A stretch of DNA of 64,000 nucleotides, from positions 1,826,762-1,890,761 of the forward strand of contig OZ253555.1 of the NCBI GenBank assembly GCA_965262725.1. Reading direction: 5' to 3'. Positions 23,024-63,505 of this stretch are shown here, piece after piece; the first letter of the stretch is position 1, and each line of letters begins with the position of its first letter. The notes beneath the pieces were generated by a model. It worked only from the letters and a program-made list of their open reading frames with translations. It searched no databases and had not been told where the DNA came from. A program made the position numbers and the translations under genes. The DNA comes from Dehalococcoidia bacterium. GTDB taxonomy: Bacteria; Chloroflexota; Dehalococcoidia; UBA2979.

Positions 23024-24937
23024 GCCAGGCTAACTGGCGAGTAGGCAGGAGGTGGAAGTCCTCTATGGCAAAGAGCTAGCCACTCATGTCATTCCGCGAG
23101 CCGTGCGCGGGTCGTCGCGAGGCGGCTTGTGAAGCGTCGGCAGCGGGGTGTGCGGGCGGGGCTAATGAGCATCGAAAGGGCCATTTGGGGTGCCGAGGCT
23201 CTTGGATTGGTCGAAGGCAATACCGGCGACGGCGCTACTGGCGAGTCGTGGTCGGGCCCCACGGTGTCGAAGACCCCATGCACGCACACACGTCTATCGC
23301 CGGGACTTGGGAGAGCTGCGCGTTGTCCCGACGAGTCGTACGCCGGGACCGCGTCGGGAAGGGACGTAAACCGTAGCCGATGATGAACGATGCGCAGCAG
23401 TCTGATGGGGCCGTACGAGCGATGAAGGCGGCGAACAAGGGGGCGCGAGCCCCGGCGGAGTCGCTGGAGCAAAGGGCCCCAACCGAGAGGAATCCTCAAA
23501 GCACCGGCACGGTCCGGACGCAGAGTCGGGGTGCGGTGTCACCCGGAGCGGAGAGGATACGGCAGTTCGTGGAACGGAAGCCGGGAGAGAAACTCACCGC
23601 GCTCTTGCACCACATCACGCCGGAGGCGCTGCGGGAGGCGTATCTCGCGTTGAAGCGGGATGCGGCTCCGGGCGTGGACGGGGTGAGGTGGCGAGAATAC
23701 GGGGACGGGCTGGACGAGCGATTGCTCGACCTGCATGGCCGCGTACACCGTGGAGCGTACCGGGCGAAGCCCGTCAGGCGGGTAGAGATACCCAAGCCGG
23801 ACGGGGGAATACGGCCGCTCGGTATCGTCTCGCTGGAGGACAAGATCGTTCAGCGGGCGGTGGTGGACAATCTTTTGAACCCGATTTACGAGTCGGGCTA
23901 CTACGGCTTCTCGCATGGCTTCAGGCCGGGGCGTTCGGCGCATGACGCGCTGGACGCACTGGCCTACGCGGTCGAACGGCGCAAGGTCAGCTGGATTGTC
24001 GAGGTGGACATCCGGGAGTTCTTCGGCAGCATCGACCGGGGGCGGCTGATGTCGTTTCTGGAGATGCGCATCGGGGACCAGCGGGTGTTGCGCCTGATAC
24101 GAAAGTGGCTGAGCGTCGGCGTCATGGACGCGGAGCCGGAAGTCGATTTCGTGCGGGGGATGCCGCAGGGGGCGCCGATATCGCCGCTGCTTGCGAACGT
24201 GTACCTGCACAACGTGCTCGACGACTGGTTTGCGCGCGAGTGGCGACCGCGGGAGGTCCGGGGCGAGGCGTACATCGTGCGGTATGCCGATGACTTCGTC
24301 CTGGGGTTCCAGCACCGCAGCGATGCGGTGCGGTTCATGGAGGCACTCCGGGAGCGGTTCGCGGCCTACGGGCTGGAGCTGCACCCGGAGAAGACCCGTC
24401 TACTTGAGTTCGGCAGGTTCGCGCTGGCGAACAGGCGGAAGCGCGGGGAGGGCCGACCGGAGACGTTCGACTTTCTCGGCATGACGCACTACTGCCGGAC
24501 CCGACGCGACGGGAGATTCGGGCTGGGGCGCAAGCCCGTTGCGAAGCGGATGCGCCGGACGCTGAAGGCCATCAAGGCCGAGTTGTGGCGGCGCATGCAC
24601 GACAACCCCGTGACGACGGGGCAGTGGCTGGGGCGGGTACTGCGTGGGTGGCTTGGCTACTACGCGGTGCCGACCAGCTCGCCGGCGCTCACGCGGTTTG
24701 TTCGTTTCGTGAAGCGGCTCTGGCTGCGCGTTCTCCGACGGCGGTCGCAGCGCGACCGTTTCACGTGGGAGCGCATCCTTGCCCTGTGCCAGAAACACTG
24801 GCCCCGAATCTCCATCCTTCACCCGTGGCCTGCGGAGCGATTTGCCGTCACGCACTTGAGGTAGGAGCCGGATGCCCGAGAGGGCACGTCCGGATCTGTG
24901 CGGGGGGTGCCGGGCAACCGGCATCCCTACCGCGAAC
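23024..24937 (+). mobile_element. group II intron copy 1 (5'-truncated relative to copy 2; intact RT ORF; domain V at 24865-24898)
   Basis: Near-identical to 48467-51718 apart from the IS insertion there. Domain V GAGCCGGATGCCCGAGAGGGCACGTCCGGATCT and a domain VI hairpin follow the RT ORF. The 5' boundary is where identity to copy 2 starts; no GUGYG at that point. Confidence 0.7.
23380..24864 (+). CDS. group II intron reverse transcriptase/maturase
   Basis: RT domains 0-7 (LHHITPEALREAYLALKRDAAPGVDGV, YADDFVLGF), an X/maturase domain and a C-terminal region. The true start is probably internal; the first ~60 aa likely translate domain IV RNA. Confidence 0.85.
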   Translation: MMNDAQQSDGAVRAMKAANKGARAPAESLEQRAPTERNPQSTGTVRTQSRGAVSPGAERIRQFVERKPGEKLTALLHHITPEALREAYLALKRDAAPGVDGVRWREYGDGLDERLLDLHGRVHRGAYRAKPVRRVEIPKPDGGIRPLGIVSLEDKIVQRAVVDNLLNPIYESGYYGFSHGFRPGRSAHDALDALAYAVERRKVSWIVEVDIREFFGSIDRGRLMSFLEMRIGDQRVLRLIRKWLSVGVMDAEPEVDFVRGMPQGAPISPLLANVYLHNVLDDWFAREWRPREVRGEAYIVRYADDFVLGFQHRSDAVRFMEALRERFAAYGLELHPEKTRLLEFGRFALANRRKRGEGRPETFDFLGMTHYCRTRRDGRFGLGRKPVAKRMRRTLKAIKAELWRRMHDNPVTTGQWLGRVLRGWLGYYAVPTSSPALTRFVRFVKRLWLRVLRRRSQRDRFTWERILALCQKHWPRISILHPWPAERFAVTHLR

Positions 24938-25093
24938 CGGTGACCGGTGTTGAGCCGTGCGGAGGAGCGCGAAGCGGCCGTCGTGTGAGGTGCGGGAGCC
25001 GTTTGTGACTCCCGGAGGAGTGCGCGGCGCTGTCCGGGGCGTGTGATCAGCAGGGGAGACCGGCGCGGAGGCGATTGCGGACAGGCGGGCGCG

Positions 25094-26535
25094 CGGCGCT
25101 GGTCCGCGAGCGGCGAGGGGGAGCGGCGTCAGGTCGGGAGCGGGAGCGCGCGCAGCCGTGCGAGGGCATCGGTGAAGTGACCGGCCCATGGCCAGCGCGC
25201 CGGCAGATGGAGCGTGAACCGACGAGCAGAGCGGGTCAGCCGCCCGACGAGAGCGAAGAGCCGCCGCCGGAGCGTCCGGGTGGTGACGATGCGCTCGCCG
25301 AGCCCGAGCCGCGCCGTCCAGCGAGCGAGATTGTGGGCGATCACCTGGACCGCGAGCCAGGCGCCGTTGGCGGCGAAGCGGCCGGACGGCAGGTGATTGA
25401 GCCCCACGCCGTACTTCAGGTCGCGGATCGCGTTCTCGACCTCGGCGTGGCGGCGATGGTCGGCCTCCAGTTCGAGCGTCTCCCCGTCGCGGTCGGTGAT
25501 GAAGGCGTGGTAGCTATACGTCGCGAAGAGAGCGAGCTGCGAACCAGGCGTCGGCCGCACGCGCCGGACGATGAGCCGCACCGGGACGGCGTCCGGCGCG
25601 TGTGCGAACGGCGTGTAGGTCGTCTCTGAGACATCGGCGCCGCCCTCCAGCCAGTACGGGATCGGCGTCCACTCCTGTTCGGGAATCGCCTCGGTCAGCT
25701 TCCGCAGCTTCGGATGCTGGCGGATCGTGACCGAGAAGCGGACATCCATCTCGCGGCAGGCAGCGACCACCGCGCGGGAGTAGAAGCCGCTGTCGGCGCG
25801 CACCGTGAGTTGCCCGTTCGCTCCGGCATCGCGGACTCGACCCACCGTCTCCTGTAGGAAGTGGGCGGCGCCCCGGCCGCTGTACGCACGACCCCCGCGC
25901 AGCCGGGCCATCAGCACGTCACCCGTCCCGGCCGCCACCGCGAGCAGCGGGTGATAGCCGCGCGCACCGGTGTAGCCGGGGCGCTGCGCCCCCTCCTTGG
26001 CGAAGCCGTAGGTCTCGCACACCGTCGAATCGAGGTCGATGGTGAATGGCGCCTCGCCGGGTCCGGCCCCGGCGGCCCAGGCGCGGGCAAGCAGCGCGCG
26101 ACTGACGCGGTCGAGCTGGCGGACGTGGCCCCAGCGGAAACTGCGTAGGAAGGTGCCGAGCGTGGATGGCGCCTTGACGGTGCATCCGAGAACGCGCTCT
26201 GTGCCGCCGGCGCGCAACGCATCGGCATCGTCGATGCAGTCGCCGCCCGCTAGCACGGAGGCGACGAGTGTCGCGACCTTGTCTCCCGCGTTCGCCCTGC
26301 CCGGTGCGTCGCCGAGGTCGAGGTGACGGTCGACCAGCTCCCGCAGGCCGAGACGTTCGGCGAGCGTGGCCGGCAGGAGCAGACCCGCGTGGGCCACCAG
26401 GCGGTCGTCGTCGAAGGCGATCGAGAGCCGGGCGGGGCTGCTCGGTGATAGCATCGAATGGGTGCTCCCTGTTTCCGGTGGATCGTTCGCTTCACGACCA
26501 TTCTCCCAGATTCAGAGGAGCACCCAATTCCCTCT
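25094..26535 (-). mobile_element. IS1380-family insertion sequence (copy A)
   Basis: Transposase 25129..26454. Both termini are homologous to the ends of IS copy B at 51733-53161. Confidence 0.7.
25129..26454 (-). CDS. IS1380-family DDE transposase
   Basis: 441 aa, about 85% identical to the 51819..53144 product. Typical IS1380 transposase layout. Confidence 0.8.
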   Translation of the reverse strand: MLSPSSPARLSIAFDDDRLVAHAGLLLPATLAERLGLRELVDRHLDLGDAPGRANAGDKVATLVASVLAGGDCIDDADALRAGGTERVLGCTVKAPSTLGTFLRSFRWGHVRQLDRVSRALLARAWAAGAGPGEAPFTIDLDSTVCETYGFAKEGAQRPGYTGARGYHPLLAVAAGTGDVLMARLRGGRAYSGRGAAHFLQETVGRVRDAGANGQLTVRADSGFYSRAVVAACREMDVRFSVTIRQHPKLRKLTEAIPEQEWTPIPYWLEGGADVSETTYTPFAHAPDAVPVRLIVRRVRPTPGSQLALFATYSYHAFITDRDGETLELEADHRRHAEVENAIRDLKYGVGLNHLPSGRFAANGAWLAVQVIAHNLARWTARLGLGERIVTTRTLRRRLFALVGRLTRSARRFTLHLPARWPWAGHFTDALARLRALPLPT

Positions 26536-26705
26536 CTTCGCGACTGCATCCACGCTCTCCTTCGGTGCATCCGGGCTTACGGTGCTCGAGTCAGCCGGCG
26601 ACCAGCGTTGGGTGGGACATCGTGTCGGTGTTGGCCCGGGGAGCCGCGCGACCGACGAGGCACGCACGCGTCTTCGTGATCGCGCTCCGCTCGACGTGGC
26701 TCGAG

Positions 26706-26835
26706 ATGCGCACGCGCTCCGAGTTCATCTCCACGCTCGGGAACGGCGTGCCCCGCTTCGCCGTTCTCGCCTGGATCGCGGGTCAGAGCGAGGATTCGAG
26801 CGTGGTCGCGACCGTATCGGTCGGGATCGTGCTGC
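26706..26835 (+). CDS. candidate exon 1 of an intron-split ABC-2 permease gene (hypothesis)
   Basis: Stop-free, GC3-rich frame (MRTRSEFISTLGNGVPRFAVLAWIAG...VGIVL) that ends exactly at the GTGCG 5' splice site of intron X. Resembles DrrB-type N-termini. Confidence 0.3.
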
Positions 26836-27649
26836 GTGCGTCCGGAAGTCGAAGGGGTGGTGACGTGATGACGTGACCGGTCCGGAGACATGCTCGTTGC
26901 TGCCAGCCGGTGAGAGTCCGGCACGGGTAACTGTCAGGAGGCCCGTTAGCAGGTCGGCGGCGTGGACGGGAAACGGTCTGCGTCGAAGCCCGACGTCAAG
27001 AGCCCTATGAGGGGGAGCAAACGTGCGGTCCGCAGCATGACGCGAAGTCTGCCGCGCCGTGAGACTCGCCTGTCTATTGACAGGACCAAGGAGGAGCCGA
27101 GCCCGGGTGGTCAGGGCGAAGGCCATGGACGAGGTGAAGATCCTGGAATGCAGCCTCAAGAAACCTCCCGGCGTATGGGACGTGGAACGTACGGAAGGTA
27201 GCGACGGGAACCGGAGAAGCCCTCCCCGGCCCGGCACCCTGTGAGAGGGCGTCGGAGCGAGGCGTCCTATAACCGGTCAGAGCCGGGAAGTGGACAGCCA
27301 GCCGGAAGGGTGGCGGAGGGGGTCGTAGTACCGCTGGAGCCGGACGGACAACATAACCGCCGGTGATGGGAAGGACCCCTACTTTGTCCGTGCATGTTGC
27401 TGGGGGTGTGGACTGGTGAGTGCCCCTCGGGGCTAGCAACCACTTGGTAGGGTTCGAGGCTCTCCGCACATGCTGTACCGGCTGGCCAAGGCACGACCCA
27501 CGTTGTGGGGAGCGCTGCATGCCATCTGGTGAAGGGCATCGGTGAGCCGGATGAGGGAGAACCTCACGTCCGGTTCGATGTGGCAGGGGCTGGAGACGGA
27601 CGCTGCTATGGCCGTGGAGTTGGGCACCACCGGGAAACCGGCTTGGAAC
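26836..27649 (+). mobile_element. ORF-less group II intron (intron X), related to the domain I of the RT-encoding intron
   Basis: 5' GTGCGTCCGGAAGTCGAAGG aligns with 48121 GTGCGCCTTGAAGTTGAAGG, and the first ~350 nt are about 80% similar to 48121-48466. Canonical domain V GAGCCGGATGAGGGAGAACCTCACGTCCGGTTCG at 27544-27577. No RT ORF. The 3' end is approximate. Confidence 0.65.
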
Positions 27650-48120: not shown

Positions 48121-49355
48121 GTGCGCCTTGAAGTTGAAGGACGGTGCAGGATGACCTGACCAGTCTGGAGACGTGCTCGTTGTCGCCAACCGGTGCAAGT
48201 CCGGTCCGGGTAACTATCAGGAGGCTCGGTAGCAGGTCGGCGGCTTGGTCTGGAAACGGACCGGGTCGGAGCCCGACGTCGAAAGCCCTTTCAGGGGAAG
48301 CAAACACACGGTCCGCAGCATAAAGCGAAGCCTGCCGCGTCGTAAGAGTCCCCGCCATTGGCGGGAAAGAGGAAGAGCCGAGCCCCGACCCTCAGGGCGA
48401 AGGCCATGGAAGAGATGAAGACCTGGAATCGCAATCTCGAAGAACTTCCCGGCGTAAGCCCTGATCCAGAGCGCCAGGCTAACTGGCGAGTAGGCAGGAG
48501 GTGGAAGTCCTCTATGGCAAAGAGCTAGCCACTCATGTCATTCCGCGAGCCGTGCGCGGGTCGTCGCGAGGCGGCTTGTGAAGCGTCGGCAGCGGGGTGT
48601 GCGGGCGGGGCTAATGAGCATCGAAAGGGCCATTTGGGGTGCCGAGGCTCTTGGATTGGTCGAAGGCAATACCGGCGACGGCGCTACTGGCGAGTCGTGG
48701 TCGGGCCCCACGGTGTCGAAGACCCCATGCACGCACACACGTCTATCGCCGGGACTTGGGAGAGCTGCGCGTTGTCCCGACGAGTCGTACGCCGGGACCG
48801 CGTCGGGAAGGGACGTAAACCGTAGCCGATGATGAACGATGCGCAGCAGTCTGATGGGGCCGTACGAGCGATGAAGGCGGCGAACAAGGGGGCGCGAGCC
48901 CCGGCGGAGTCGCTGGAGCAAAGGGCCCCAACCGAGAGGAATCCTCAAAGCACCGGCACGGTCCGGACGCAGAGTCGGGGTGCGGTGTCACCCGGAGCGG
49001 AGAGGATACGGCAGTTCGTGGAACGGAAGCCGGGAGAGAAACTCACCGCGCTCTTGCACCACATCACGCCGGAGGCGCTGCGGGAGGCGTATCTCGCGTT
49101 GAAGCGGGATGCGGCTCCGGGCGTGGACGGGGTGAGGTGGCGAGAATACGGGGACGGGCTGGACGAGCGATTGCTCGACCTGCATGGCCGCGTACACCGT
49201 GGAGCGTACCGGGCGAAGCCCGTCAGGCGGGTAGAGATACCCAAGCCGGACGGGGGAATACGGCCGCTCGGTATCGTCTCGCTGGAGGACAAGATCGTTC
49301 AGCGGGCGGTGGTGGACAATCTTTTGAACCCGATTTACGAGTCGGGCTACTACGG

Positions 49356-50681
49356 GGCACCTCGAAGAACTCGCGATTGTTGATGAAGGTATCGGTGAGG
49401 GCACGAGGGGGCAGAGGGCGTAGCTGAGGAGACCCCAGGGGGTGTGGGTGAGTCCGCGAGAGCATAGGTGAAGCGGGATAATTGACAGTTAAACGGGACT
49501 GTCAAAGCACCGAACTAGAGGCTGGTGTGAGGTCTGTGGACGGGTGGCGGCAAGCTAGGCCGCGGCAGCCGTACGGCGGTGTTCGAGGTGCGCCAGACGG
49601 CGAATATTGTACGCCAGGTTCTTGAAGCCGATCTGCGTCACTGCCCGCCGCACGCCGATCGTACGGATGTGCGTGCCGCCCATCTCGTTCGTCTGCGAGC
49701 CGAAGATGTGCTCAACCCGGGCCCGTACTTGCGACCATCCCCGGTTGACCGCCTCCTCAGCCGCCGTCAACGGCCGGTTGGCAGCGGCCTTCCGATGGAT
49801 GCGGCTCGTCAGACCTTTCTCCGTGAGCATTGCCTCAATCGCCCGCGACCGATAGGCACGGTCTGCCCACACATCGGGTGACGTGTTCGGAGAGTCGAGC
49901 AGCTGGTCGATCACCTGGCTGTCATGGACCGCGGCATCGGTGACGGCGTAGGAACGCACCAGCTTGTGGCGCCGATCGATGGTGATGTGGTTCTTGTAGC
50001 CGTAGTGACTCTTCCCGTGCTTCTTCGTCCAGCGGGCGTCGAGGTCTTTCTGGGCCAGCTTCGCCGGATTGAAGACCCACTCCGAGGGAATGAGGTCCTG
50101 CTTGAGCGACTCGTTCTCCCGGCGGCTGTTGCGCTGGATCGGCACCGAGACGATCGAGGCGTCGACGATCTGTCCGCCACTGGCGCGGTAGCCCTGGCTG
50201 GCGAGATAGTGGTCGAAGGCCTGGAACAACTCGGCGATGGCGCCCGCCCTGGTCAACTGCTCGCGGTAGAGCCAGAAGGTGGTGGCGTCGGGCACCCGGC
50301 CTTCGATGCCTGTGCCGCAGAAGCGGGAGAAGGAGAGACGGTCGCGGATCTGATACTCAATCTGTTCATCGGAGAGGTTGTAGAGTACGCCGAGTATCAA
50401 TCCCTTGAAGATGACGATTGCGTCCCATGGCTTGCGTCCGGCCGGTGATTTACGCTCTTCTTCGGGCGTGGCCCAGACGGCTTCTAACTGAGGTCTGAAC
50501 TGCTCCCACGGGATGATTTGGTCGAGCTTGGCGAGTGGGTCGCCCTTGGCGTCGAGAGCGTCGTAGCGGTCGTCCACATTGAAGAACCCAAGTTGGCCCA
50601 TATCATCCCCCGTAACCATGACCCTAATGGCTACAGTATATCATTCACCATGCCGACGATATAGTCATTCTTCGAAGTGCC
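49356..50681 (-). mobile_element. IS5-family insertion sequence nested in the intron RT ORF
   Basis: Imperfect terminal inverted repeats GGCACCTCGAAGAA / GGCACTTCGAAGAA. Flanking direct repeat about CTACGG. Transposase at 49555..50619. Confidence 0.7.
49555..50619 (-). CDS. IS5/IS4-superfamily DDE transposase
   Basis: 354 aa DDE_Tnp_1-like protein (...DASIVSVP...WTKKHGKSHYGYKNHIT...DRAYRS...). Confidence 0.75.
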   Translation of the reverse strand: MVTGDDMGQLGFFNVDDRYDALDAKGDPLAKLDQIIPWEQFRPQLEAVWATPEEERKSPAGRKPWDAIVIFKGLILGVLYNLSDEQIEYQIRDRLSFSRFCGTGIEGRVPDATTFWLYREQLTRAGAIAELFQAFDHYLASQGYRASGGQIVDASIVSVPIQRNSRRENESLKQDLIPSEWVFNPAKLAQKDLDARWTKKHGKSHYGYKNHITIDRRHKLVRSYAVTDAAVHDSQVIDQLLDSPNTSPDVWADRAYRSRAIEAMLTEKGLTSRIHRKAAANRPLTAAEEAVNRGWSQVRARVEHIFGSQTNEMGGTHIRTIGVRRAVTQIGFKNLAYNIRRLAHLEHRRTAAAA

Positions 50682-51732
50682 CTACGGCTTCTCGCATGGC
50701 TTCAGGCCGGGGCGTTCGGCGCATGACGCGCTGGACGCACTGGCCTACGCGGTCGAACGGCGCAAGGTCAGCTGGATTGTCGAGGTGGACATCCGGGAGT
50801 TCTTCGGCAGCATCGACCGGGGGCGGCTGATGTCGTTTCTGGAGATGCGCATCGGGGACCAGCGGGTGTTGCGCCTGATACGAAAGTGGCTGAGCGTCGG
50901 CGTCATGGACGCGGAGCCGGAAGTCGATTTCGTGCGGGGGATGCCGCAGGGGGCGCCGATATCGCCGCTGCTTGCGAACGTGTACCTGCACAACGTGCTC
51001 GACGACTGGTTTGCGCGCGAGTGGCGACCGCGGGAGGTCCGGGGCGAGGCGTACATCGTGCGGTATGCCGATGACTTCGTCCTGGGGTTCCAGCACCGCA
51101 GCGATGCGGTGCGGTTCATGGAGGCACTCCGGGAGCGGTTCGCGGCCTACGGGCTGGAGCTGCACCCGGAGAAGACCCGTCTACTTGAGTTCGGCAGGTT
51201 CGCGCTGGCGAACAGGCGGAAGCGCGGGGAGGGCCGACCGGAGACGTTCGACTTTCTCGGCATGACGCACTACTGCCGGACCCGACGCGACGGGAGATTC
51301 GGGCTGGGGCGCAAGCCCGTTGCGAAGCGGATGCGCCGGACGCTGAAGGCCATCAAGGCCGAGTTGTGGCGGCGCATGCACGACAACCCCGTGACGACGG
51401 GGCAGTGGCTGGGGCGGGTACTGCGTGGGTGGCTTGGCTACTACGCGGTGCCGACCAGCTCGCCGGCGCTCACGCGGTTTGTTCGTTTCGTGAAGCGGCT
51501 CTGGCTGCGCGTTCTCCGACGGCGGTCGCAGCGCGACCGTTTCACGTGGGAGCGCATCCTTGCCCTGTGCCAGAAACACTGGCCCCGAATCTCCATCCTT
51601 CACCCGTGGCCTGCGGAGCGATTTGCCGTCACGCACTTGAGGTAGGAGCCGGATGCCCGAGAGGGCACGTCCGGATCTGTGCGGGGGGTGCCGGGCAACC
51701 GGCATCCCTACCGCGAACCGAAGAAGAGTGCG

Positions 51733-53161
51733 CGAGCGGCTGGGGTTGGGTGCTCCGCTGTAGCTGGGACAATGGTTTTTGACCGAATCACGTCACAGCC
51801 ACAGGGAGCACCCATTCGATGTTAGCAACGAGCAGCCCCGACCGGATACACATCGCCTTCGACGACGACCGCCTCGTGGACCACGCGGGCCTGCTGCTCC
51901 CGGCCACGCTCGCTGGCCGGCTCGGCCTCCGTGAACTGGCAGACGCCCAGCTCGACCTCGGTGACGCAGCGGGGCGGGCGAACGTCGGCGACAAGCTGAT
52001 GACTCTCATCGCCTCGGCGCTCGCGGGCGGCGACTGCATCGATGACGCCGATGCCATGCGCTCAGGCGGCGCCGGGCGCGTGCTCGGCTGCACCGTGAAG
52101 GCGCCGTCCACCCTCGGGACCTTCCTGCGCAGCTTCCGGTGGGGCCACGTCCGCCAGCTCGACCGCGTCAGCCGCGAGTTGCTGGCCCGCAGCTGGGCGG
52201 CCGGGGCGGGACCCGGCGCGGCGCCGTTCACGATCGACCTCGACTCGACGCTCTGCGAGACCTACGGCCTCGCCAAGGAGGGCGCCCGGCACCACGGCTA
52301 CACGGGCGTGCGCGGCTATCACCCGCTGCTCGCGGTGGCGGCCGGGACGGGTGAGGTGCTGATGGCGCGGCTGCGCGGGGGCCGTGCCAACACCGCTCGG
52401 GGGGCCGCACACTTCCTGCGTGAGACGGTGGCGCGGGTGCGCGACGCCGGGGCCTCGGGGCAGCTCACGCTGCGCGCCGACAGCGGCTTCTACAGCCACG
52501 CTGTCGTCGCCGCCTGCCGCAAGCAGGATGTCCGCTTCTCCATCACCATTCGCCAGCAGCCGAACGTACGCCGGCTGATCGAGGCGATACCGGAAGAGGA
52601 CTGGACGCCGATCCCGTACTGGCTGCCGGGCGGCGCCGCTGTCGCCGAGACGACCTACACGCCGTTCCAGCACACGGGGGACGCCACCGCGGTGCGGCTC
52701 ATCGTGCGGCGCGTCACGCCGACGCCCGGCTCACAGCTCGCGCTCTTCGTGGACTACAGTTACCACGCCTTCATCACCAACCGCGCGGGGGAGATGATGG
52801 AGCTGGAGGCCGACCATCGCCGTCACGCCGAGATCGAGAACGCGATCCGCGACCTCAAGTACGGCGTCGGGTTGAACCATCTCCCATCGGGCCGCTTCGC
52901 CGCGAACGCGGCGTGGCTCGCGGTGCAGGTGATCGCGCACAACCTCGCCCGCTGGACGGCGCGCCTCGGGCTCGGCGAGGGAATCATGACGACCAGGACG
53001 CTCAGGCGGCGCTACTTCTCTCTCGCCGGACGGCTCACCCGCTCTGCCCGGCGGTGGACTCTGCACCTCCCGAAGCGCTGGCCCTGGGCAGAGCAGCTGG
53101 CAGCCGCGCTCGCGCGACTACGGGCGATACCGCTCCCGGCCTGACGCTCGCTCACAGCGCC
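51733..53161 (+). mobile_element. IS1380-family insertion sequence (copy B)
   Basis: Starts about 14 nt after the intron copy-2 3' end. Transposase at 51819..53144. Ends homologous to copy A. Confidence 0.7.
51819..53144 (+). CDS. IS1380-family DDE transposase
   Basis: 441 aa paralog of 25129..26454. Confidence 0.8.
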   Translation: MLATSSPDRIHIAFDDDRLVDHAGLLLPATLAGRLGLRELADAQLDLGDAAGRANVGDKLMTLIASALAGGDCIDDADAMRSGGAGRVLGCTVKAPSTLGTFLRSFRWGHVRQLDRVSRELLARSWAAGAGPGAAPFTIDLDSTLCETYGLAKEGARHHGYTGVRGYHPLLAVAAGTGEVLMARLRGGRANTARGAAHFLRETVARVRDAGASGQLTLRADSGFYSHAVVAACRKQDVRFSITIRQQPNVRRLIEAIPEEDWTPIPYWLPGGAAVAETTYTPFQHTGDATAVRLIVRRVTPTPGSQLALFVDYSYHAFITNRAGEMMELEADHRRHAEIENAIRDLKYGVGLNHLPSGRFAANAAWLAVQVIAHNLARWTARLGLGEGIMTTRTLRRRYFSLAGRLTRSARRWTLHLPKRWPWAEQLAAALARLRAIPLPA

Positions 53162-53370
53162 GACCCGGGTCCGAGGCTCGCGCCAGCATGCCCGCGCACG
53201 CCTCGCGCACCCTCGCGCCCGCACCCTCAGCGCCCACGAGCGGTGCTGAGCGACGGCTTCTGGCTCCGGCCCGCCCCCGGCGCCGCCCGGCGAACGCCGG
53301 CACGCCCGCCGAACTCTCCGGCAGCCCGGCACCCCGCCTCGTCAAGCTTCGATCGGTGGATTCGAGCTTA
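53162..53370. repeat. 209-bp direct repeat, copy 1 (second copy at 55042-55250)
   Basis: About 98.5% identical copies flanking the IS481-like element. No convincing ORF. Confidence 0.85.
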
Positions 53371-53377
53371 GACCGAT

Positions 53378-55015
53378 CACTGTGTCGACGAGCAGCGATT
53401 CGGTCAGGGGCTAACGCGTCAGCGACCCTGTCCTCCCTGGAAGCAGAAGCAGGGGGTGACAGTGCAGCAATCCGAACAGGCACGCCGCTATGTACTCGAC
53501 AGCGTGATCGCAGGCGATCTGCGGGTCGCGCAGGCCGGCGAGATCATGGGCATCAGTCAGCGCCACACGCGGCGCCTCCTCGCCGCCTACCGCGCGCGGG
53601 GAGCCGCGGCGCTGGGGCACGGCAACCGCGGCCGTCGCCCCCACAACGCTGTCCCGGTCGCCGTCGCCTCCGCCGTGGTGCGCTTCGCCACCAGCGGCTA
53701 CCCGGGAGCGAACCACACCCACCTCGCCGAGCTGCTCTGGGAGCACGAGGGTCTGGAGGTGAGCAGCTCGTCCGTCCGCCGGATCCTGGCGAAGGCCGGC
53801 ATCCCCAGTCCCCGACGCCGCCGGCCGCCCGAGCACCGCGTCCGGCGTGAGCGGATGCCCCGCGAGGGGATGCTGCTCCAGGTGGACGGCAGCCATCACG
53901 CCTGGCTCGAGGAACGAGGCCCCCGCTTCGCCCTGCTGCTCGCCGTCGACGATGCGACCGGCGCAGCCGTGCACGCGCTCTTCCGCCCCACCGAGGACGC
54001 GCGCGGCTACTTCCTCCTGCTGGAGGAGGTCGTCCGCGGCTGCGGCATCCCGCTCGCCCTCTACAGTGACCGCCACGGCGTCTTCCTGGCCGGTCCCGGC
54101 GGGCGGCGTGGGCTCAAGGCCTCGACCCAGTTCGCGCGGGCGATGGGCGAACTCGGGATACGCCAGATCTTCGCGCGATCACCCCAGGCGAAGGGGCGCG
54201 TGGAACGTGCCGCAGGTACGTTTCAGGACCGGCTGGTGACCGAGCTGCGCCACGCCTCAGCCTCCACCATCCCCGAGGCGCAGGCCGTGCTCGAGGGCTT
54301 CCTGCCGCGCTTCGACGCCCGCTTCCGGGTCCCGGCGGCGCAACCCGAGCAGGCCTACCGCCCGCTCGACCCCGCGCTCCCCCTCGCCTCCATCCTCAGC
54401 TTTCGGAACCCCCGCACCGTCGCCCGCGACAACACAGTCAAGTACCGCTGGCGCACGCTGCAGCTGCTGCCGGGTCCCGAGCGCACCAGCTACGCTGGGA
54501 CACGGGTCGAGGTCGTGGAACGGCCGGGCGGCGAGCTCTCCGTCCAGCACGTAGGCGAGACGATCCCCTCTCGCCCGGCACCGCCGCGCGCGGGGATGCT
54601 GCGGGAGGCTCGCTCCGAGCTGGCTCTCCGCCCCGACCACGAGCGCATCGCCTCAGGGCTCGGCTCCGGCGGCGCGCCTCGGCGGCTCAGTGCGCCCCCC
54701 GTCGCCCCGTCGGCGGTTGCGGCCGGCAACGGCGCTGCGGTCAGGCCGGAGACCAACGGCAAGCAACTCCCTGCTCCGACGCCCCGGCAGCTCGCCCGCT
54801 GGAAGGCGATTCAGCAGGCGCAGCTGCAAGGGCTCTCGATGCGGGCGACCGCCAGGCTGCTCGGGATCGCCCGCGACACCGTCCACAACTACGTCCTGGC
54901 TAACGGCGTGCCTGGACGCCGCAACGGCGCCGCGGCATCCTCCGACGACCAGGGCGACACTGACAGAGTCGCTGACGCGTTACGAGGACAGAATCGCTGA
55001 CCGTCGACAGTCACT
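53378..55015 (+). mobile_element. IS481/ISNCY-like element with about 60-bp imperfect terminal inverted repeats
   Basis: Left end CACTGTGTCGACGAGCAGCGATTCGGTC...TAACGCGTCAGCGACCCTGTC. Right end is the reverse complement (GACAGAGTCGCTGACGCGTTA...GAATCGCTGACCGTCGACAGTC). Confidence 0.6.
53456..55000 (+). CDS. DDE (rve integrase-core) transposase, IS481/ISNCY-like
   Basis: 514 aa with an N-terminal HTH and RRPH-type motif (LGHGNRGRRPHNAV), an rve core and a C-terminal HTH. Confidence 0.65.
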   Translation: MTVQQSEQARRYVLDSVIAGDLRVAQAGEIMGISQRHTRRLLAAYRARGAAALGHGNRGRRPHNAVPVAVASAVVRFATSGYPGANHTHLAELLWEHEGLEVSSSSVRRILAKAGIPSPRRRRPPEHRVRRERMPREGMLLQVDGSHHAWLEERGPRFALLLAVDDATGAAVHALFRPTEDARGYFLLLEEVVRGCGIPLALYSDRHGVFLAGPGGRRGLKASTQFARAMGELGIRQIFARSPQAKGRVERAAGTFQDRLVTELRHASASTIPEAQAVLEGFLPRFDARFRVPAAQPEQAYRPLDPALPLASILSFRNPRTVARDNTVKYRWRTLQLLPGPERTSYAGTRVEVVERPGGELSVQHVGETIPSRPAPPRAGMLREARSELALRPDHERIASGLGSGGAPRRLSAPPVAPSAVAAGNGAAVRPETNGKQLPAPTPRQLARWKAIQQAQLQGLSMRATARLLGIARDTVHNYVLANGVPGRRNGAAASSDDQGDTDRVADALRGQNR

Positions 55016-55022
55016 GGTCGGG
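54997..55022. repeat. about 25-bp direct repeat (second copy at 63962-63989), candidate att-type boundary
   Basis: CGCTGACCGTCGACAGTCACTGGTCG versus CGCTGAGTCCGTCACAGTCACTGGTCG at the window end, next to int/xis. Confidence 0.4.
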
Positions 55023-55041
55023 TATTAGAACGATCGGAACA

Positions 55042-55250
55042 GACCCGGGTCCGAGGCTCGCGCCAGCATGCCCGCGCACGCCTCGCGCACCCTCGCGCCC
55101 GCACCCTCAGCGCCCCCGAGCGGTGCTGAGCGACGGCTCCTGGCTCCGGCCCGCCCCCGGCGCCGCCCGGCGAACGCCGGCACGCCCGCCGAACTCTCCG
55201 GCAGCCCGGCACCCCGCCTCGTCAAGCTTCGATCGGTGGATTCGAGCTAA
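55042..55250. repeat. 209-bp direct repeat, copy 2
   Basis: See 53162-53370. Confidence 0.85.
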
Positions 55251-55343
55251 GGGGATCCGACTCCGTAGGGGCCTCGACTAGGTGGCGTGGTTCGACGCGG
55301 CGGAAGTTCCTGCGTGGTGGATCAACGACGAAGAAGGAGCATT

Positions 55344-55619
55344 ATGAACGACCTGATCGGCGAATACATCAACGCGGCTCGGAAGGTGCCACAGCTCGAG
55401 GAGGAGGCTGACAGCGCACTGGCGGTCGCTCAAGAAGCGCAGAAGACACGCGACGAGGCTGTTGCAGACCGCGAATCACAGAGCGTCTACGACGCAGTTC
55501 AATCGTGGGCCATTGCAGCGGACGCTGCTGAGAGAGCGCAAGGCGAACTCGAATTGGTCAAGAAGCGGCGTGATAACGCCGAGAAGGCGATCATGGCATA
55601 TCTTCGCCTGCCTTCCTAG
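55344..55619 (+). CDS. small hypothetical coiled-coil protein
   Basis: 91 aa with RBS AAGGAG. Lower GC than the backbone. Confidence 0.4.
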   Translation: MNDLIGEYINAARKVPQLEEEADSALAVAQEAQKTRDEAVADRESQSVYDAVQSWAIAADAAERAQGELELVKKRRDNAEKAIMAYLRLPS

Positions 55620-55704
55620 GCGCCGGTGTCCCTACACACTACTCCCATGCTCAGCTCAGACTGGGTAGACAGCGCCTGGTCACGCGGAGAGTCGGTGGCG
55701 ACTC

Positions 55705-56511
55705 TTACCGCGACCGTCGTAGAGAGAGATCGGCAACGACGCCGAAATGATCGGAGAGCTTCCGCTTCGCGAAGACATTGCTCATCACGTCCACCGGCCC
55801 GACCGCCAGATCCTTGCTGAGCGCGATGTGGTCGATGCTCTTGCGACCCTGGAAGGTGACGGGACCGGTCGCGATCGGAATATCCGACGAGAAGCACTCG
55901 CGCAGCATCGACCTGGTCCTGGCCGGCGCTCGGCCGCCGGGTCCGACGACCTGATTGAAGTCGCCCATCACGATGAGGCGCTCCGGGGTCCCCCGCCTCA
56001 GAATCGCCGCGAGGCCGGCCAGGTAGCGCTCATGGTCTCCCCACGGCCGCCTGCGCTCCGGCCCGCGCCTCTTCTCGGTCCGCGACCGGAACCACGGGAT
56101 GCAGACCCCGATCACGGTGACAGGTCCCAGCGACGTCTGCGTGACGCCGGACACGTACCGTCCGGGCGGCATGGAGGCAATGCCCACATCGTCGACGTGC
56201 TGCCACGGCTCCCGCGACCAGAGCATGACCTTCCTGCGGTGTTCCCGGATCGAGTAGCCATAATCAGGCCGTGAGCGCGCGATGTACCCGTCTGGACCAA
56301 GCAGCTCGTCATGGGTCTCGGTGAGACAGAGCACCTCGGGATCCCAGCCGGCAATGCGGCGCAGGATCTCAGGCGTTGCCCAGGATGCGGGAGTGGCCCA
56401 CTCCACATTCCACGTCGACACCCTCAGCTGCACGACCCGACTCCCTCGGTGGGCTGTCGGCTTGTCCGGAGGCCCGAAAACCTGACTGACTCTCTCCGCT
56501 CCCGGGTGCAT
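55705..56511 (-). CDS. endonuclease/exonuclease/phosphatase (EEP) family protein
   Basis: EEP motifs (LRVSTWNVEW, LCLTETHDE, MGDFNQV, SIDHIALSKD). Confidence 0.65.
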   Translation of the reverse strand: MHPGAERVSQVFGPPDKPTAHRGSRVVQLRVSTWNVEWATPASWATPEILRRIAGWDPEVLCLTETHDELLGPDGYIARSRPDYGYSIREHRRKVMLWSREPWQHVDDVGIASMPPGRYVSGVTQTSLGPVTVIGVCIPWFRSRTEKRRGPERRRPWGDHERYLAGLAAILRRGTPERLIVMGDFNQVVGPGGRAPARTRSMLRECFSSDIPIATGPVTFQGRKSIDHIALSKDLAVGPVDVMSNVFAKRKLSDHFGVVADLSLRRSR

Positions 56512-56660
56512 TCCCGAACTCTGACTGGGACACGATACGCGGCGGAACCAATGACCCATGCTGCGCCGCCCACCCAGTACGCCGATTGTGCGCGAGAGAC
56601 GGTCTTGGGAACGCCCGGTGCCGACCGCCGCACAGTCCGTGCGAGGTGAGGCGTGGCAGA

Positions 56661-57020
56661 ATGTCCGCCATGGTCTCCCCGCTCCCCATCATGACGCTGA
56701 TCGCGCGCGCTTCATGGCGCGAGGCGGTGACGTACCGCGAGACATGGCCCCACGAGTACGTCGTGATCCAACGTGACGGGCAGCAGGCGCTGCTCGCCGC
56801 CTTCTGCGCCCGCATCGCGCGCGGCGAAGGCGTCGAGTGCCGCTTCTTCGGGCGGACGCGGCGCCATCTCTTCCTTGCCGATCACAAGTACTGGACGATG
56901 ACCGACTGCGCCGACATCGACCTCGACGCCGATGACTACGTCCTCAACCGCGCACGCCTTTACCGCGACCGCCGCGACTTCGATGTGCGGCCGGGCGACC
57001 ACGGCGCGCGGGACGGGTAG
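56661..57020 (+). CDS. hypothetical protein (no recognised domain), upstream of and abutting the PD-(D/E)XK gene
   Basis: 119 aa (MSAMVSPLPIMTLIARASWREAVTYRETWPHEYVVIQRDG...). Confidence 0.35.
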   Translation: MSAMVSPLPIMTLIARASWREAVTYRETWPHEYVVIQRDGQQALLAAFCARIARGEGVECRFFGRTRRHLFLADHKYWTMTDCADIDLDADDYVLNRARLYRDRRDFDVRPGDHGARDG

Positions 57021-57026
57021 CCTTGC

Positions 57027-58014
57027 CGTGTCCGACGCGCACGAAGACGCCGCCGAACGGTTGGACGTCCACACGCTGTGGGGCCACGAGGCGCTCGACT
57101 TCACGCCCTGGCTGGCCGCCAATCTCGACCCCCTCGGCAAGGCGATCGGTCTGCGGCTCGAGCTACTCGACCGCGAGCACGCGGTCGGCCAACTCTCGCT
57201 CGACCTCCTCGCTCGTGACGCCGATGCGCGCGTGCGGGTGGCGATCGAGAATCAGCTCGCGGTGGCCGATCTCTCGCACCTTGGACAGCTCATCACCTAC
57301 GCCACGGGCAGCGACGCCCCTACGGCCGTGTGGGTCGCCACGGGTTTCCGGCGCGAACTGGCCGACGCGCTGCACTGCCTGAACGCCTGGACCGGCGAGG
57401 GCATCCGCTTCTACGCCGTCCAGGTGGAGGTCGTGAGGCGAACCGAGGACGCCGATCCGGAGCCGAGGTTCCGCAGGGTCGTCTACCCGGGCGGCCGGGA
57501 CGAGTCCTTTGCGCTGGCCGCCGCGGAGCCGTCGCCCGAGGCCCGGCGCTATCAGGAGTTCTTCGAGCCGCTGATCGCCGAACTGCTGCGGACGGGCTTC
57601 GCCGGACGCGCCGTGCAGCACTTCGATCACACGGGGCGGTTCTTCCGCTCGCGCCTCGATCCCGGCATCGGCTACGCCGCGTCGCTCTGGAGGGGCGTCG
57701 CGTGGGTCGGGCTGCATATTCGCATGGACGGCACGGCTCACACCAAGCGCGTCTTCGACACGCTGCACGGCGAGCGGGCGAGCATCGAGGCCGACCTCCC
57801 CGCGACCGACGGGTCGACGTGGTCGTGGCTGCGGCACGGCGCCTACACGTTCTCCAGCATCAACCTCCGCCGCGACGGCGCGATCCACGACCCGCCGGAC
57901 CGTCTGGCCGAGACGCGAGAGTGGATGCTCGACATGCTGCCGCGGCTTCGCGCTGTCTTCGACCCGCGCGTCGCGGCCATTCTTGAGGGCCTGCGTGCGT
58001 CGGGGAACGCGTAG
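57027..58014 (+). CDS. PD-(D/E)XK nuclease-like N-domain fused to a DUF4268-like C-domain protein
   Basis: Motifs D...D...VAIENQL...DLSHLGQLITY, then a W-rich C-terminal domain. The family assignment rests on recall only. Confidence 0.45.
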
Positions 58015-58439
58015 GACGCTGGCGAGACAGCCGCCTGCGGCGGCAGCGTCCCTATGGCTCGATCCTCGACCAGGAGAACTCTCCCACCCCGCTTGAGCTG
58101 CCGCCGCCGGGCCGCTTCACCACTCGGGCTCCGCCTTCGCACGGCCCCGCACGCCGCCAGGGACAGGAGAGCCCACGATGACCGTCACCACCTCAGAACT
58201 CCGCCCGCTGCTCATGCGACTCAAGCTCGGCTGGCTCACACGCTCGTGCGCAACCTGTCGAATAGAGTCGGCACGACTTGCGACCGAATCGCGCGGCAAG
58301 GTCGGGTCGATGGAGTCGGGCAGGGCGGTCCCGGCGGCGACCTGCTCCAGCGCGGTCGCGAACTCGTCCGGGCTGAAGGAGCGGCCTTCGCGCGCTTCCT
58401 CGCGAAGCGTCATGACCCGGTACGATGGGTCCACGGCCG

Positions 58440-58620
58440 TCACGCCTCCCGTGCTCGCCGCGCTGGATCCGCACGCGGCTTCGGGCCGCAGGTTCTGAAG
58501 GCGCTGGTTCCCGATTCTGGGAGCGAGGTGAGGCCTCAGGATTGTGCGGTAGTTCTCCGCAACGCGCAGGCCGCGGATCCTCATCCTGTCCGCGGGCCCG
58601 TCATCGGAATCTCCGGCGAC
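58440..58620 (-). pseudogene. fragment of a tyrosine integrase gene (N-terminal SAM-like region)
   Basis: LRVAENYRTILRPHLAPRIGNQRLQNLRPE, cf. the integrase at 62342..63505 (VAENYRTIVRLHLAPAIGSLRLQELRPD). About 75% nt identity to 63120-63240. Confidence 0.55.
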
Positions 58621-58845
58621 GCGCCATTGGAGCTGGTAGCGAGCCCCGCTGGCATCGTCACCATCCTGATGATCGTCGGCATCGCGCTGGACCGCGTGAT
58701 GAAGGACAGGCGCAAGGCCATCGTCGACGAAGGGGGGTCTCAAGCGCGCCCGGCGCGAGCTCGACGACGACTAGCATGTCCTGCTTGTCAAGCATCGCGC
58801 GCCCGTCCAAACTCGTCGCAGGACCGGCGACGAGGGGGCCGAGGA

Positions 58846-59088
58846 ATGCCGTTTAGCGATCAGGTGAAGGGCGAGGCCTTCCGCCGCTCCAGGGGGCGGT
58901 GCGAGTGCCGGAGGAAGACGTGCTCGAACCGGCGCCACAAGACGCCGCGGTGCACTACTTCGATCGTGCGGAGCGTCCACTACCACCACGTCCACGCCGA
59001 GAGGCTCGGCGGGTCTAACGGCCTGTCGAACTGCGAGGCGCTTTGCATACCGTGCCACAAGGCGACTGCCAACTACGGGCGCTCGTGA
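58846..59088 (+). CDS. HNH endonuclease-domain small protein
   Basis: 80 aa with Cys pairs and an H-N-H core (CECRRKTC...HYHHVHAERLGGSNGLSNCEALCIPCH). Confidence 0.65.
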   Translation: MPFSDQVKGEAFRRSRGRCECRRKTCSNRRHKTPRCTTSIVRSVHYHHVHAERLGGSNGLSNCEALCIPCHKATANYGRS

Positions 59089-59274
59089 ACTCGAATGGCG
59101 GCTGGCGCGCGTCGCGCCTGAGACACATTCGATCCCAGTCGACGCCAGCGGGAGACGCGGCGTCTAGCGGCACAGCGTCCAGATCCGCATGTCCGCCGAG
59201 TTGCGTCTCTTAGGCGAGTGGCCTCGGACTCGGCCTCAACCCAGTCGTCGTAGCGACCGCAGACGCTCGAGCCG

Positions 59275-59832
59275 GTGAGAGGGCTCGCGAGCAGGAGTAG
59301 GGGGGCACAATTGCTCAAGGCAATGCGGGGATACTTCGCACACCCGCACGGCAGGAAGCGAATTATTGCTCCTTGGAAATGGGCATGGCGAGACAGGATC
59401 CTACTTGGCGGTGAAGCAATAGCTGTGTGTGCCTCAATTGCCGCGATACCTGTCGAACTCGCCGAATCGGACTTCGGACCTTGGTTGGTAATAGGAGCGA
59501 CGATTGTAGGAACTGCTGCACTTCTATGGTATGCGCTCGACCTGATCTCAGCGGGAGAGATGCCGCTAACAAATAGATCGGCTCACACGATCAGGCAGGT
59601 CGTACAAGCCATGAAAATGGAAGAACAGGGAGCCATTTTCGAGTGGGACAATATCAGTCCAGACGGTGGAATACCGTCAGACCTAGCGAATTGGGCAAGA
59701 TTGAGGCCAGAATTGAAAAGACTCATTAGACAATACAATATCCCTCTGACGGTGGCGGTGGGCATGTTGGATGCTCAAGAAAAGGCGAGAGAAACATCAG
59801 GCATCCCCGACGAAGGAGAAGCGCACGGGTGA
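59275..59832 (+). CDS. low-GC (about 50%) hypothetical membrane protein, two predicted TM helices plus a soluble C-domain
   Basis: ILLGGEAIAVCASIAAIPV and WLVIGATIVGTAALLWYALDLI. Codon usage clearly differs from neighbouring genes. Confidence 0.45.
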   Translation: MRGLASRSRGAQLLKAMRGYFAHPHGRKRIIAPWKWAWRDRILLGGEAIAVCASIAAIPVELAESDFGPWLVIGATIVGTAALLWYALDLISAGEMPLTNRSAHTIRQVVQAMKMEEQGAIFEWDNISPDGGIPSDLANWARLRPELKRLIRQYNIPLTVAVGMLDAQEKARETSGIPDEGEAHG

Positions 59833-60128
59833 TCTCACTAGAGATTCACCACATGCGTCATCTCACTGGGGCTGGGCGGTAGCCTGACGCGCAGGGCACC
59901 GCCTGCGAGAAACGAAGTCGAGCGCGGGGATGACCCTCGCGACCACCACCTGTGCCGTGCGGGTCTTCGCGTGGCGGCCGCGAGGCCATGGTGCAGCACG
60001 GCGACTGTGCGCCAGTGCCGCCGCGGCCGCGCGGTAGTGTCTGCGTGCGGTTACGCGAGCGGCCAGAGGGTCACATATGCCGAAGCAGTACAAGTTGAGC
60101 CGTGCGCGGGCCGCCAACAACGATGTGC

Positions 60129-62341: not shown

Positions 62342-63505
62342 TCACTTCGCAATCAGATGGTCGAGCGCAGCCGCCGCCGCGCTCTGCTGGCCACTCAGGA
62401 GATGCCCGTACACATCCATGGTGAACGCCGCGGAGCCGTGGCCGAGCCGCCGTGAGACCGTCAGCAGGTCGACGCCGGCCTTGATCCACTGACTCGCCGC
62501 CGTGTGGCGCAGCGAGTGAAAGTTGACCGTACCGGGATCGTCGATCCCGCTCGAACGGAGCAGGCGGCGAAAGCCGGTATAGAAGGCCTGCCGGTACTGG
62601 AACCGGCCGGATCCGTCGGGGAACACGAGATCGTGATCCTGCCAGGCGGCACCCAGCCGAAGCCGCACGGCGTTCTGTTCGGCGCGATGCTGACGCAGCA
62701 GGGCGACGGTTGCTCCCGAGAGTTCGATGGTGCGACGGGAATTGCGCGTCTTCGGGGGCAGCAAGCGGAACTCACCGCCGACGCTCTGGAGTGTCTGCCG
62801 CACGAGAAAGCTCGCGCGTTCCAGGTCGATCGATGCCCACCTCGCACCGAGCAACTCCGCCTGCCGCGCGCCGGTGGCGAGCGCGAAGCGTAGCGGGACG
62901 TCGTAGTCCGTGTCCTGGACGGCCCCGAGCAGCTTCGCGATCTCGCTCTCATCCAGCGCGCGGCGTTCGCGCATTTTCCCCGCCAGCGACGGGCTCGGTA
63001 CAGCGGAGGCCGGGTTGCGGACAAGCAGCTGCCCGGCGACGGCGGCCCCGAGAGCCTGGCGGAGCAGACCCAGTATCTTCCTGACTGTCGCGGGCGCTCG
63101 TGACTTCGACAGGCCATCCTTCAGGTCGAGAATGTGGTCGGGACGGAGTTCCTGGAGGCGCAGGCTTCCGATTGCGGGAGCGAGGTGGAGCCTGACGATC
63201 GTGCGGTAGTTCTCGGCAACGCGCGGGCCGATCGCCTGATCGACCGTGCGCCGTTCGAGCCACAGCGCCAGCCACTCGCCGACCGTGATCTGGCTCGGGT
63301 CCACGCCGCCGTGATCGCGCTCGCCCAGCGCCTCTCGGAGTGCGCGCTGCGCGTCGCGCTTGGTGCCCTCGACCGAAAACCGGCGGCGCCGTCGCCTGCC
63401 GGTGCCAGCATCGCGCGGCAGCTCGACGGTGACCCGCCAGCTGCCCCTGGAGCGCTGCTCAATCGACCCGAGCCGTAGTCGCGCCTGGCCATCAGTCGCC
63501 TCCAC
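62342..63505 (-). CDS. int: tyrosine-type site-specific recombinase / phage integrase
   Basis: 387 aa with the catalytic R..HxxR..Y region (FHSLRHTAAS...VYGHLL). Confidence 0.85.
   Translation of the reverse strand: MEATDGQARLRLGSIEQRSRGSWRVTVELPRDAGTGRRRRRRFSVEGTKRDAQRALREALGERDHGGVDPSQITVGEWLALWLERRTVDQAIGPRVAENYRTIVRLHLAPAIGSLRLQELRPDHILDLKDGLSKSRAPATVRKILGLLRQALGAAVAGQLLVRNPASAVPSPSLAGKMRERRALDESEIAKLLGAVQDTDYDVPLRFALATGARQAELLGARWASIDLERASFLVRQTLQSVGGEFRLLPPKTRNSRRTIELSGATVALLRQHRAEQNAVRLRLGAAWQDHDLVFPDGSGRFQYRQAFYTGFRRLLRSSGIDDPGTVNFHSLRHTAASQWIKAGVDLLTVSRRLGHGSAAFTMDVYGHLLSGQQSAAAAALDHLIAK

Follow-up and report, generated by a model that had tools for sequence, protein, structure and literature searches.

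Do the nuclease-type genes between positions 55344 and 59832 of a 64,000-nt stretch of the Dehalococcoidia bacterium contig OZ253555.1 (the window; all positions are in window numbering) form one defence system, or do they only lie side by side? The question was raised by a first-pass annotation, which had read five genes, those for an EEP-family enzyme, a 119-residue protein, a restriction-fold/DUF4268-like protein, an HNH protein and a protein with two transmembrane (two-TM) segments, as a single undescribed module within a phage-defence or mobile-element hot spot. All five open reading frames (ORFs) were present at or near the positions annotated. We found, however, that the region is not a single system but a mosaic of genes, from defence and from mobile elements, that were acquired separately, and that its only conserved multi-gene unit is an operon of two genes, one for the 119-residue protein, here called A119, and one for the downstream PDC-S11-type nuclease, here called S11 (Table 1). 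Our preferred reading, which we consider rather likely, is that within this mosaic defence island the operon acts as one conserved unit, in which S11 cuts modified phage DNA and A119 targets or gates S11.

It is clear that S11 is a member of the PADLOC family PDC-S11 and that its nuclease motif is intact. The ORF first annotated for it (56932-58014, 360 residues) overlaps the A119 gene. Because the hidden Markov model (HMM) alignment begins only at residue 42 of this ORF and the relatives are 328 residues long, the true start of S11 is the GTG codon at 57028, 7 nt past the A119 stop codon. Four PADLOC models of PDC-S11 matched the protein; in the best match (PDLC04911, E-value in Table 1), ORF residues 42-348 were aligned with model positions 9-313 (305 of 318 positions). 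The Pfam DUF4268 model scored 21 bits on S11, below its cut-off of 27, and a precomputed DUF4268 match exists for most of the homologues listed. The first-pass description of a restriction-fold/DUF4268-like gene was therefore right as to the fold, which is more specifically that of PDC-S11, and was in error as to the start; its DUF4268 label falls under the Pfam threshold. Residues D59 and E74-N75-Q76 were conserved in at least 97% of 107 homologues and all are intact in the window protein. In the predicted architecture, an N-terminal NucS-like PD-(D/E)XK nuclease is followed by a C-terminal DUF4268 reader-like domain. The AlphaFold2 model was that of a natural A119–S11 fusion (mean predicted local distance difference test score, pLDDT, 88.7), a homologue whose nuclease part shares 58% identity with that of the window protein; the nuclease domain was NucS-like by fold, and two modification-dependent restriction enzymes, AspBHI (9.2) and MspJI (7.6), were the next structural matches.

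The NucS-like fold of the nuclease domain favours another explanation, namely that S11 is a housekeeping mismatch-repair nuclease of the NucS/EndoMS type from an actinobacterium, with A119 as an unrelated neighbour. NucS serves mismatch repair in Actinobacteria. S11, however, matched neither NucS_C nor NucS_N in Pfam, and its domain order is reversed, with the nuclease at the N-terminus and DUF4268 after it. In addition, insertion sequence (IS) elements and integrases surround the gene, which is part of a mobile island, and its spread across phyla is patchy and inside defence islands. A housekeeping role thus appears scarcely credible.

What a nuclease of this family may attack is indicated by work on its relatives. 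PDC-S11 was recently renamed "Madara"; in E. coli ECOR34 it is a single gene, whose product has a NucS-like PD-(D/E)XK domain at the N-terminus and an EVE-like domain at the C-terminus; it restricts T4 with glucosylated hydroxymethylcytosine, not T4 with unmodified cytosine, and the D63A substitution abolishes defence (bioRxiv 10.64898/2026.09.05.749240). Similarly, the DUF4268 nucleases MdgA and MdgB defend against modified T4 and not against the unmodified T4-GT7, and purified MdgA degraded T4 DNA far better than T4-GT7 DNA (bioRxiv 10.1101/2025.02.28.640651). The earlier statement that the genes matched no named system does not hold for the nuclease, which is PDC-S11 and now Madara. The ORFs that were scanned in the span 55344-59832 include none with a methyltransferase domain; at this locus the nuclease stands without a cognate methyltransferase, as a type IV enzyme does. 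By analogy with its relatives, the most likely activity of S11 is modification-dependent restriction, in the manner of a type IV enzyme and with no methyltransferase partner.

The link between A119 and S11 was examined in the best 80 of at least 532 A119 copies in GTDB species genomes (L001-L080). All genes of the span were used as tblastn queries on these loci, as well as on 46 metagenomic loci with EEP relatives and on five contexts of two-TM homologues (L136-L140). The downstream partners of A119 were typed by targeted tblastn, naive ORF clustering being confounded by antisense ORFs in these high-GC loci. S11 followed directly 3' of A119 on the same strand in 36 of the 80 loci, mostly after a gap of 5-15 nt or with a 4-nt overlap. 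Other PD-(D/E)XK nucleases occupied the same place in further loci: a NucS_C-type PDC-S11 variant in three, an unclassified PDDEXK_4-like nuclease in seven and PDC-S26 in two. An unknown 160-residue family was found there in four loci and a Fic protein in one, and 27 loci had no identified co-directional downstream partner; among these, a few carried a nuclease upstream or on the opposite strand, and some of the stand-alone A119 copies adjoin VapC or MNT-HEPN genes. In all eight contexts of close S11 relatives A119 lay upstream of S11, in one of them (L088) called as two fragments.

The two proteins are also joined covalently. In-frame A119–S11 fusions were found in at least 11 clusters (P0138, P0141 and others; P0256, P0257, P0261, P0267), and A119 was fused to the PDDEXK_4-like family in four cases (P0246, P0312, L055, L067). 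A119 is thus genetically coupled to S11 and to other nucleases. The 7-nt gap in the window, together with the conserved arrangement and the in-frame fusions, makes it very likely that A119 and S11 are co-transcribed, as had been proposed for the 119-codon gene and its DUF4268-like neighbour.

As a separate observation, the 160-residue protein that takes the place of the nuclease 3' of A119 (L024, L028, L058, L022) carries the motif EKWFIFME..RLFAHRSWTG.GVYEA and had no match in Pfam or PADLOC.

A119 itself is a real gene, as first annotated: real and spurious ORFs were told apart by codon-position GC (window GC 0.69), its GC3 is high (Table 1), and its homologues form 1279 clusters at 90% identity. 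At 50% identity only 358 representatives reached E <= 0.001, many of them fragments. Homology and structure searches of the kind that had been suggested as a check assigned the nuclease to the defence family PDC-S11 and gave neither a family nor a solved-structure match for A119. The protein had no match in Pfam, NCBIfam, PHROGs or PADLOC, and sequence and profile searches of the PDB were empty (best profile E = 0.46); in BFVD one unnamed 93-residue phage protein was matched (E = 8.6e-6). When 43 family members were compared with Pfam, two single matches at chance level were obtained. One of the members matched Pfam TAGT with E = 0.026, which is about the chance expectation for 43 queries, and this candidate was dismissed. 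From its structural model (pLDDT 92), A119 would be a previously undescribed alpha/beta domain of 110-120 residues, and the model has no helix-turn-helix (HTH), winged HTH or ribbon-helix-helix (RHH) element.

The A119 proteins of the 80 loci were 68-82% identical to that of the window, and all come from metagenome-assembled genomes (MAGs) of at least eight phyla. The lineages are Dehalococcoidia, Acidimicrobiia, Gemmatimonadota (Ca. Palauibacter), Vicinamibacterales, Bryobacterales, Latescibacterota, Poriferihabitaceae, Alphaproteobacteria and Gammaproteobacteria. Many of the 80 belong to lineages, among them Ca. Palauibacter, Poriferihabitaceae, Dehalococcoidia and Acidimicrobiia, that we take from the record titles to be sponge symbionts, and these titles suggest that A119 is shared across phyla within one habitat. 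Carriage by a known phage or plasmid was also considered and rejected, since A119 was not found in 72,556 plasmids (PLSDB), 50,697 phage genomes (INPHARED) or the viral contigs of IMG/VR. When the genes of the same loci were compared with those of the window, synonymous divergence (pS) was about 0.6, near saturation, for both A119 and S11, and nonsynonymous divergence (dN) was 0.165 for A119 against 0.39 for S11. With synonymous sites nearly saturated, the low dN of A119 reflects strong constraint and not recent transfer. Many of the most conserved positions are aromatic or basic, among them W19, R20, W29, H31, Y33, K76, Y77, W78 and R97; the protein as a whole is roughly neutral (isoelectric point, pI, 6.9).

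The mechanism that we propose is as follows. With a stop–start spacing of 7 nt, A119 and S11 would be made from one transcript, probably in equal amounts, and A119 would serve as a stoichiometric subunit or domain of the nuclease. Its ligand may be something invariant, for which a DNA feature, a nucleotide and a conserved factor of the host are candidates; binding would then gate or target cleavage by S11. The substrate would be phage DNA with hypermodified bases, as the homology with Madara and the domain content shared with MdgA and MdgB suggest. A119 could then be a portable sensor or specificity module common to several nuclease families.

A small upstream gene with tight stop–start spacing is also what is seen in type II toxin-antitoxin operons, and A119 might instead be an antitoxin-like inhibitor that keeps the nuclease inactive until infection, the pair being a toxin-antitoxin or abortive-infection system. 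The islands are rich in toxin-antitoxin genes (HicAB in the window, VapC or MNT-HEPN beside stand-alone A119), and the stand-alone copies resemble orphan immunity genes. A specific inhibitor, however, is expected to co-evolve with its target, whereas the evolution of A119 is slower than that of S11 by a factor of 2.4, and nearly the same A119 (68-82% identity) is paired with at least four PD-(D/E)XK groups and with Fic. Type II antitoxins are usually specific for one toxin and have a DNA-binding domain; A119 has many partners, and neither HTH nor RHH is seen in its confident model. The recurrent in-frame fusions, and the occurrence of Madara homologues elsewhere without A119, also speak against an inhibitor, so that we regard this explanation as unlikely.

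Another role that could account for a fixed position upstream of variable defence genes is that of a transcriptional regulator, like BrxR or CapW, which lie upstream of varied systems. The 227-nt intergenic region between the pair and the divergent EEP gene, which both would share, fits such a role. The confident model, however, offers none of the HTH, winged HTH or RHH elements of a regulator, the protein is close to neutral, and repeated covalent fusion to enzymes would be unusual for a repressor. It seems even less probable than an antitoxin. Because of its slow evolution, its promiscuity towards nuclease families and its aromatic and basic conserved positions, A119 fits a subunit or sensor better than an antitoxin or a repressor.

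Several observations nevertheless weigh against a targeting or gating subunit. The 27 loci in which A119 has no identified co-directional partner downstream mean that it is not an obligate nuclease subunit. Fusions to ADP-ribosylglycohydrolase (P0326) and to DUF4268 without a nuclease (P0244, P0248) are at odds with a simple nuclease-subunit picture. The model of the fusion protein showed no confident docking (predicted TM-score, pTM, 0.59) and its linker, residues 100-121, was disordered, and A119 has no recognisable nucleic-acid-binding fold. E. coli Madara works, and plasmid-borne homologues occur, without A119. Finally, S11 shares only about 30-35% identity with the PDC-S11 proteins of cultured bacteria, so that its modification dependence is an extrapolation.

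The remaining genes of the span behaved differently from the pair. The EEP gene, divergent from A119–S11, was correctly recognised at first: Pfam Exo_endo_phos scored 53.9 bits against a cut-off of 24.5, and the motifs TWNVEW, CLTETH, GDFN, SIDH and SDH can be read. With 19 bits against the 99 of TIGR00633, the enzyme is not an ExoIII equivalog. The gene calls of relatives suggest that its true start is a GTG at about 56433, giving a protein of about 242 residues. EEP, A119 and S11 directly adjoin one another both in the window and in the close relatives L081 and L084; in a third (L082) EEP lies 4 kb from the pair, beside a UvrD-like helicase, and in four others (L083, L086-L088) it is absent. 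The block 55679-58230 is about 86% identical in nucleotides to L081, with the 91-residue gene outside it, and the linkage of EEP to the pair in close relatives is consistent with shared ancestry of this 2.5-kb block and does not count as independent functional evidence. In none of the 46 metagenomic loci was an A119–S11 pair adjacent to the EEP relative. EEP relatives recur beside McrBC (L081, L102, L103), a GmrSD-like DUF262 protein (L100, L106, L107) and a UvrD-like helicase (L082, L089, L090), and the family, though missing from PADLOC, may itself be one of defence-island genes.

The gene for the stand-alone 80-residue HNH-like protein lies at 58846-59088. Its product has cysteines in CxC...C and CxxCH arrangement, as well as an HH..H..N motif; its Pfam HNH match (PF01844) reached only 20.4 bits, just under the cut-off of 21.4, and PHROG 333 HNH matched with 1.3e-5. 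It did not co-occur with the A119–S11 pair, either in the 80 A119 loci or in the five two-TM contexts. The low-GC two-TM protein was likewise as first described (Table 1). It is an independent small family of 37 homologue clusters (at most 64% identity), whose members in L136-L140 lie near excisionase, methyltransferase and DUF4238 genes, never with HNH, the other genes of the span being absent. Its GC content, 0.52 against about 0.68 in its surroundings here and 0.53-0.58 against 0.61 in other hosts, may be a signature that the gene retains from host to host.

Between the A119–S11 pair and the HNH and two-TM genes sits a degenerate integrase remnant, which the first-pass annotation had overlooked. 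The remnant resembles the N-terminal part of the intact integrase (62342-63505): in a tblastn comparison its clearly homologous part and integrase residues 93-123 shared 74% identity, and the remnant repeat D2 is 82% identical in nucleotides to 63138-63230. It is probably the boundary of two integrative elements that were accreted in tandem at one site.

Taken together, these data leave little room for the original proposal that EEP, A119, S11, HNH and two-TM make up one undescribed multi-gene defence system, which we judge very improbable. All five genes do lie within 4.5 kb of an island, and the first three are contiguous in three genomes (the window, L081 and L084). Homologues of EEP, HNH, the two-TM protein, the 91-residue protein, HicAB and the integrase were, however, found by tblastn in none of the 80 A119 loci; the 46 EEP loci and the five two-TM contexts were equally negative, the integrase remnant splits the set, and the linkage of EEP is limited to the block with about 86% nucleotide identity described above, which reflects shared ancestry and not independent co-occurrence. 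The co-occurrence check that accompanied the proposal thus succeeded for the A119–S11 pair, which recurs, and failed for EEP, HNH and two-TM, which do not.

The view of the region as a phage-defence or mobile-element hot spot was upheld, since PADLOC lists the family of the central gene as a defence candidate and the pair of the relatives lies inside defence islands. Its neighbours in close relatives include McrBC, Type ISP, Eco57I with SNF2 and CBASS (TIR-SAVED with Cap2/3-like genes), as well as HEPN, Mrr and NucS_C nucleases and a ScoMcrA-like HNH protein. The description of the region as TA-rich did not hold as a statement of composition: GC across the span was 0.60-0.71, and a drop to 0.53-0.56 was confined to 59250-59999. 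The features of the span are listed in Table 1.

Table 1. Features between positions 55344 and 59832 of the window, with strand and the main evidence for each (GC3, GC content at third codon positions).
Feature	Position	Strand	Evidence
91-residue acidic, probably helical protein, function unknown	55344-55619	+	GC3 0.65, no family match
EEP-family (DNase I-like) enzyme	55705 to ~56433 or 56559	-	Pfam PF03372 Exo_endo_phos, E = 2.7e-14
A119, conserved accessory gene, upstream partner of the nuclease	56661-57020	+	GC3 0.88
S11, PDC-S11 / Madara-type nuclease, 328 residues	57028-58014 (GTG start)	+	PADLOC PDC-S11, E = 1.9e-60
Degenerate integrase remnant	58117-58743, clear homology 58480-58572	-	tblastn against the intact integrase
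Stand-alone 80-residue HNH-like protein	58846-59088	+	sub-threshold Pfam HNH, GC3 0.89
Low-GC two-TM protein, function unknown	59317-59832	+	GC 0.52, GC3 0.52, hydrophobic segments 42-60 and 70-90

To the right the span is flanked by hicB, hicA, an IS256-family element, the intact integrase and an excisionase, and to the left by IS elements nested in one another, together with a group II intron. The ends of the island were sought as att-type direct repeats in the window, and only chance matches of 11-14 nt were obtained; no tRNA genes were found within the window, and promoter and terminator scans stayed at background level.

We also noticed several features of the mobile elements in the window. 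Two copies of a group II intron (23055-27040 and 48187-51645) were recognised by Rfam matches to D1-D4. In the second copy, the 5' part of the ribozyme is separated from the reverse-transcriptase ORF (50677-51645) by an IS5-type transposase gene (49555-50619), an arrangement that looks like a nested insertion. In addition, an IS (region 51819-55251) lies between the two copies of a 210-nt direct repeat, at 53162-53371 and 55042-55251, which are 99% identical; this IS has 21-nt inverted repeats (53412-53432 and 54962-54982) and is inserted beside an IS1380-type transposase gene.

The novelty here lies in a partner domain, conserved and without a structural match, that goes with Madara-type and other PD-(D/E)XK defence nucleases; the core nuclease family was already known. 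Madara has only just been characterised, as a single gene, and annotations of it as a "single-gene" system miss a component in a large environmental clade. The extra domain accompanies at least two other nuclease families as well, and A119 is a starting point for learning how these nucleases are targeted or controlled. Its apparent confinement to uncultured MAGs, many of them, by their record titles, of sponge-symbiont lineages, suggests a defence module shared by habitat. A wider proposal, which we put forward only tentatively, is that A119 may be the first known case of a sensor or specificity domain that is new at the level of the fold and serves several PD-(D/E)XK families (two PDC-S11 sub-families, PDC-S26 and PDDEXK_4-like) and occasionally Fic and ADP-ribosylglycohydrolase. 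These would make up a class of restriction-like systems, built of two components or fused, in at least eight phyla of uncultured, largely sponge-associated bacteria that defence-finding tools have missed.

Among the known systems, S11 is closest to Madara. The PDC-S11 HMM match runs nearly end to end, the N-terminal domain is a NucS-like PD-(D/E)XK nuclease with the conserved catalytic Asp (D59 in S11, D63 in Madara), a reader-like C-terminal domain is predicted in S11 too, and both genes lie in defence islands without a methyltransferase partner. They differ in that Madara is described as a single gene, whereas S11, here and in a large uncultured clade, has A119 upstream or fused to it; moreover, the identity of the window S11 with PDC-S11 proteins from cultured bacteria is, as noted, no more than about 30-35%. 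MdgA and MdgB also combine DUF4268 with a nuclease. MdgB has been reported only in Actinomycetota and Acidobacteriota (bioRxiv 10.1101/2025.02.28.640651), and these lineages carry the S11 clade too; both Mdg proteins were reported as single genes, and we liken them to S11 by their published description. In the type IV enzymes MspJI and AspBHI, the reader is an N-terminal SRA-like domain of the same polypeptide, and there is neither DUF4268 nor an A119-like partner. NucS/EndoMS has another domain order and other partner domains, and it is a housekeeping enzyme that is not borne on islands. GmrSD, also of type IV, is built of unrelated domains (a DUF262 ParB-like NTPase and a DUF1524 HNH nuclease), but its two parts are encoded separately or fused in a single protein, and in this split-or-fused pattern it resembles A119 and S11 by analogy.

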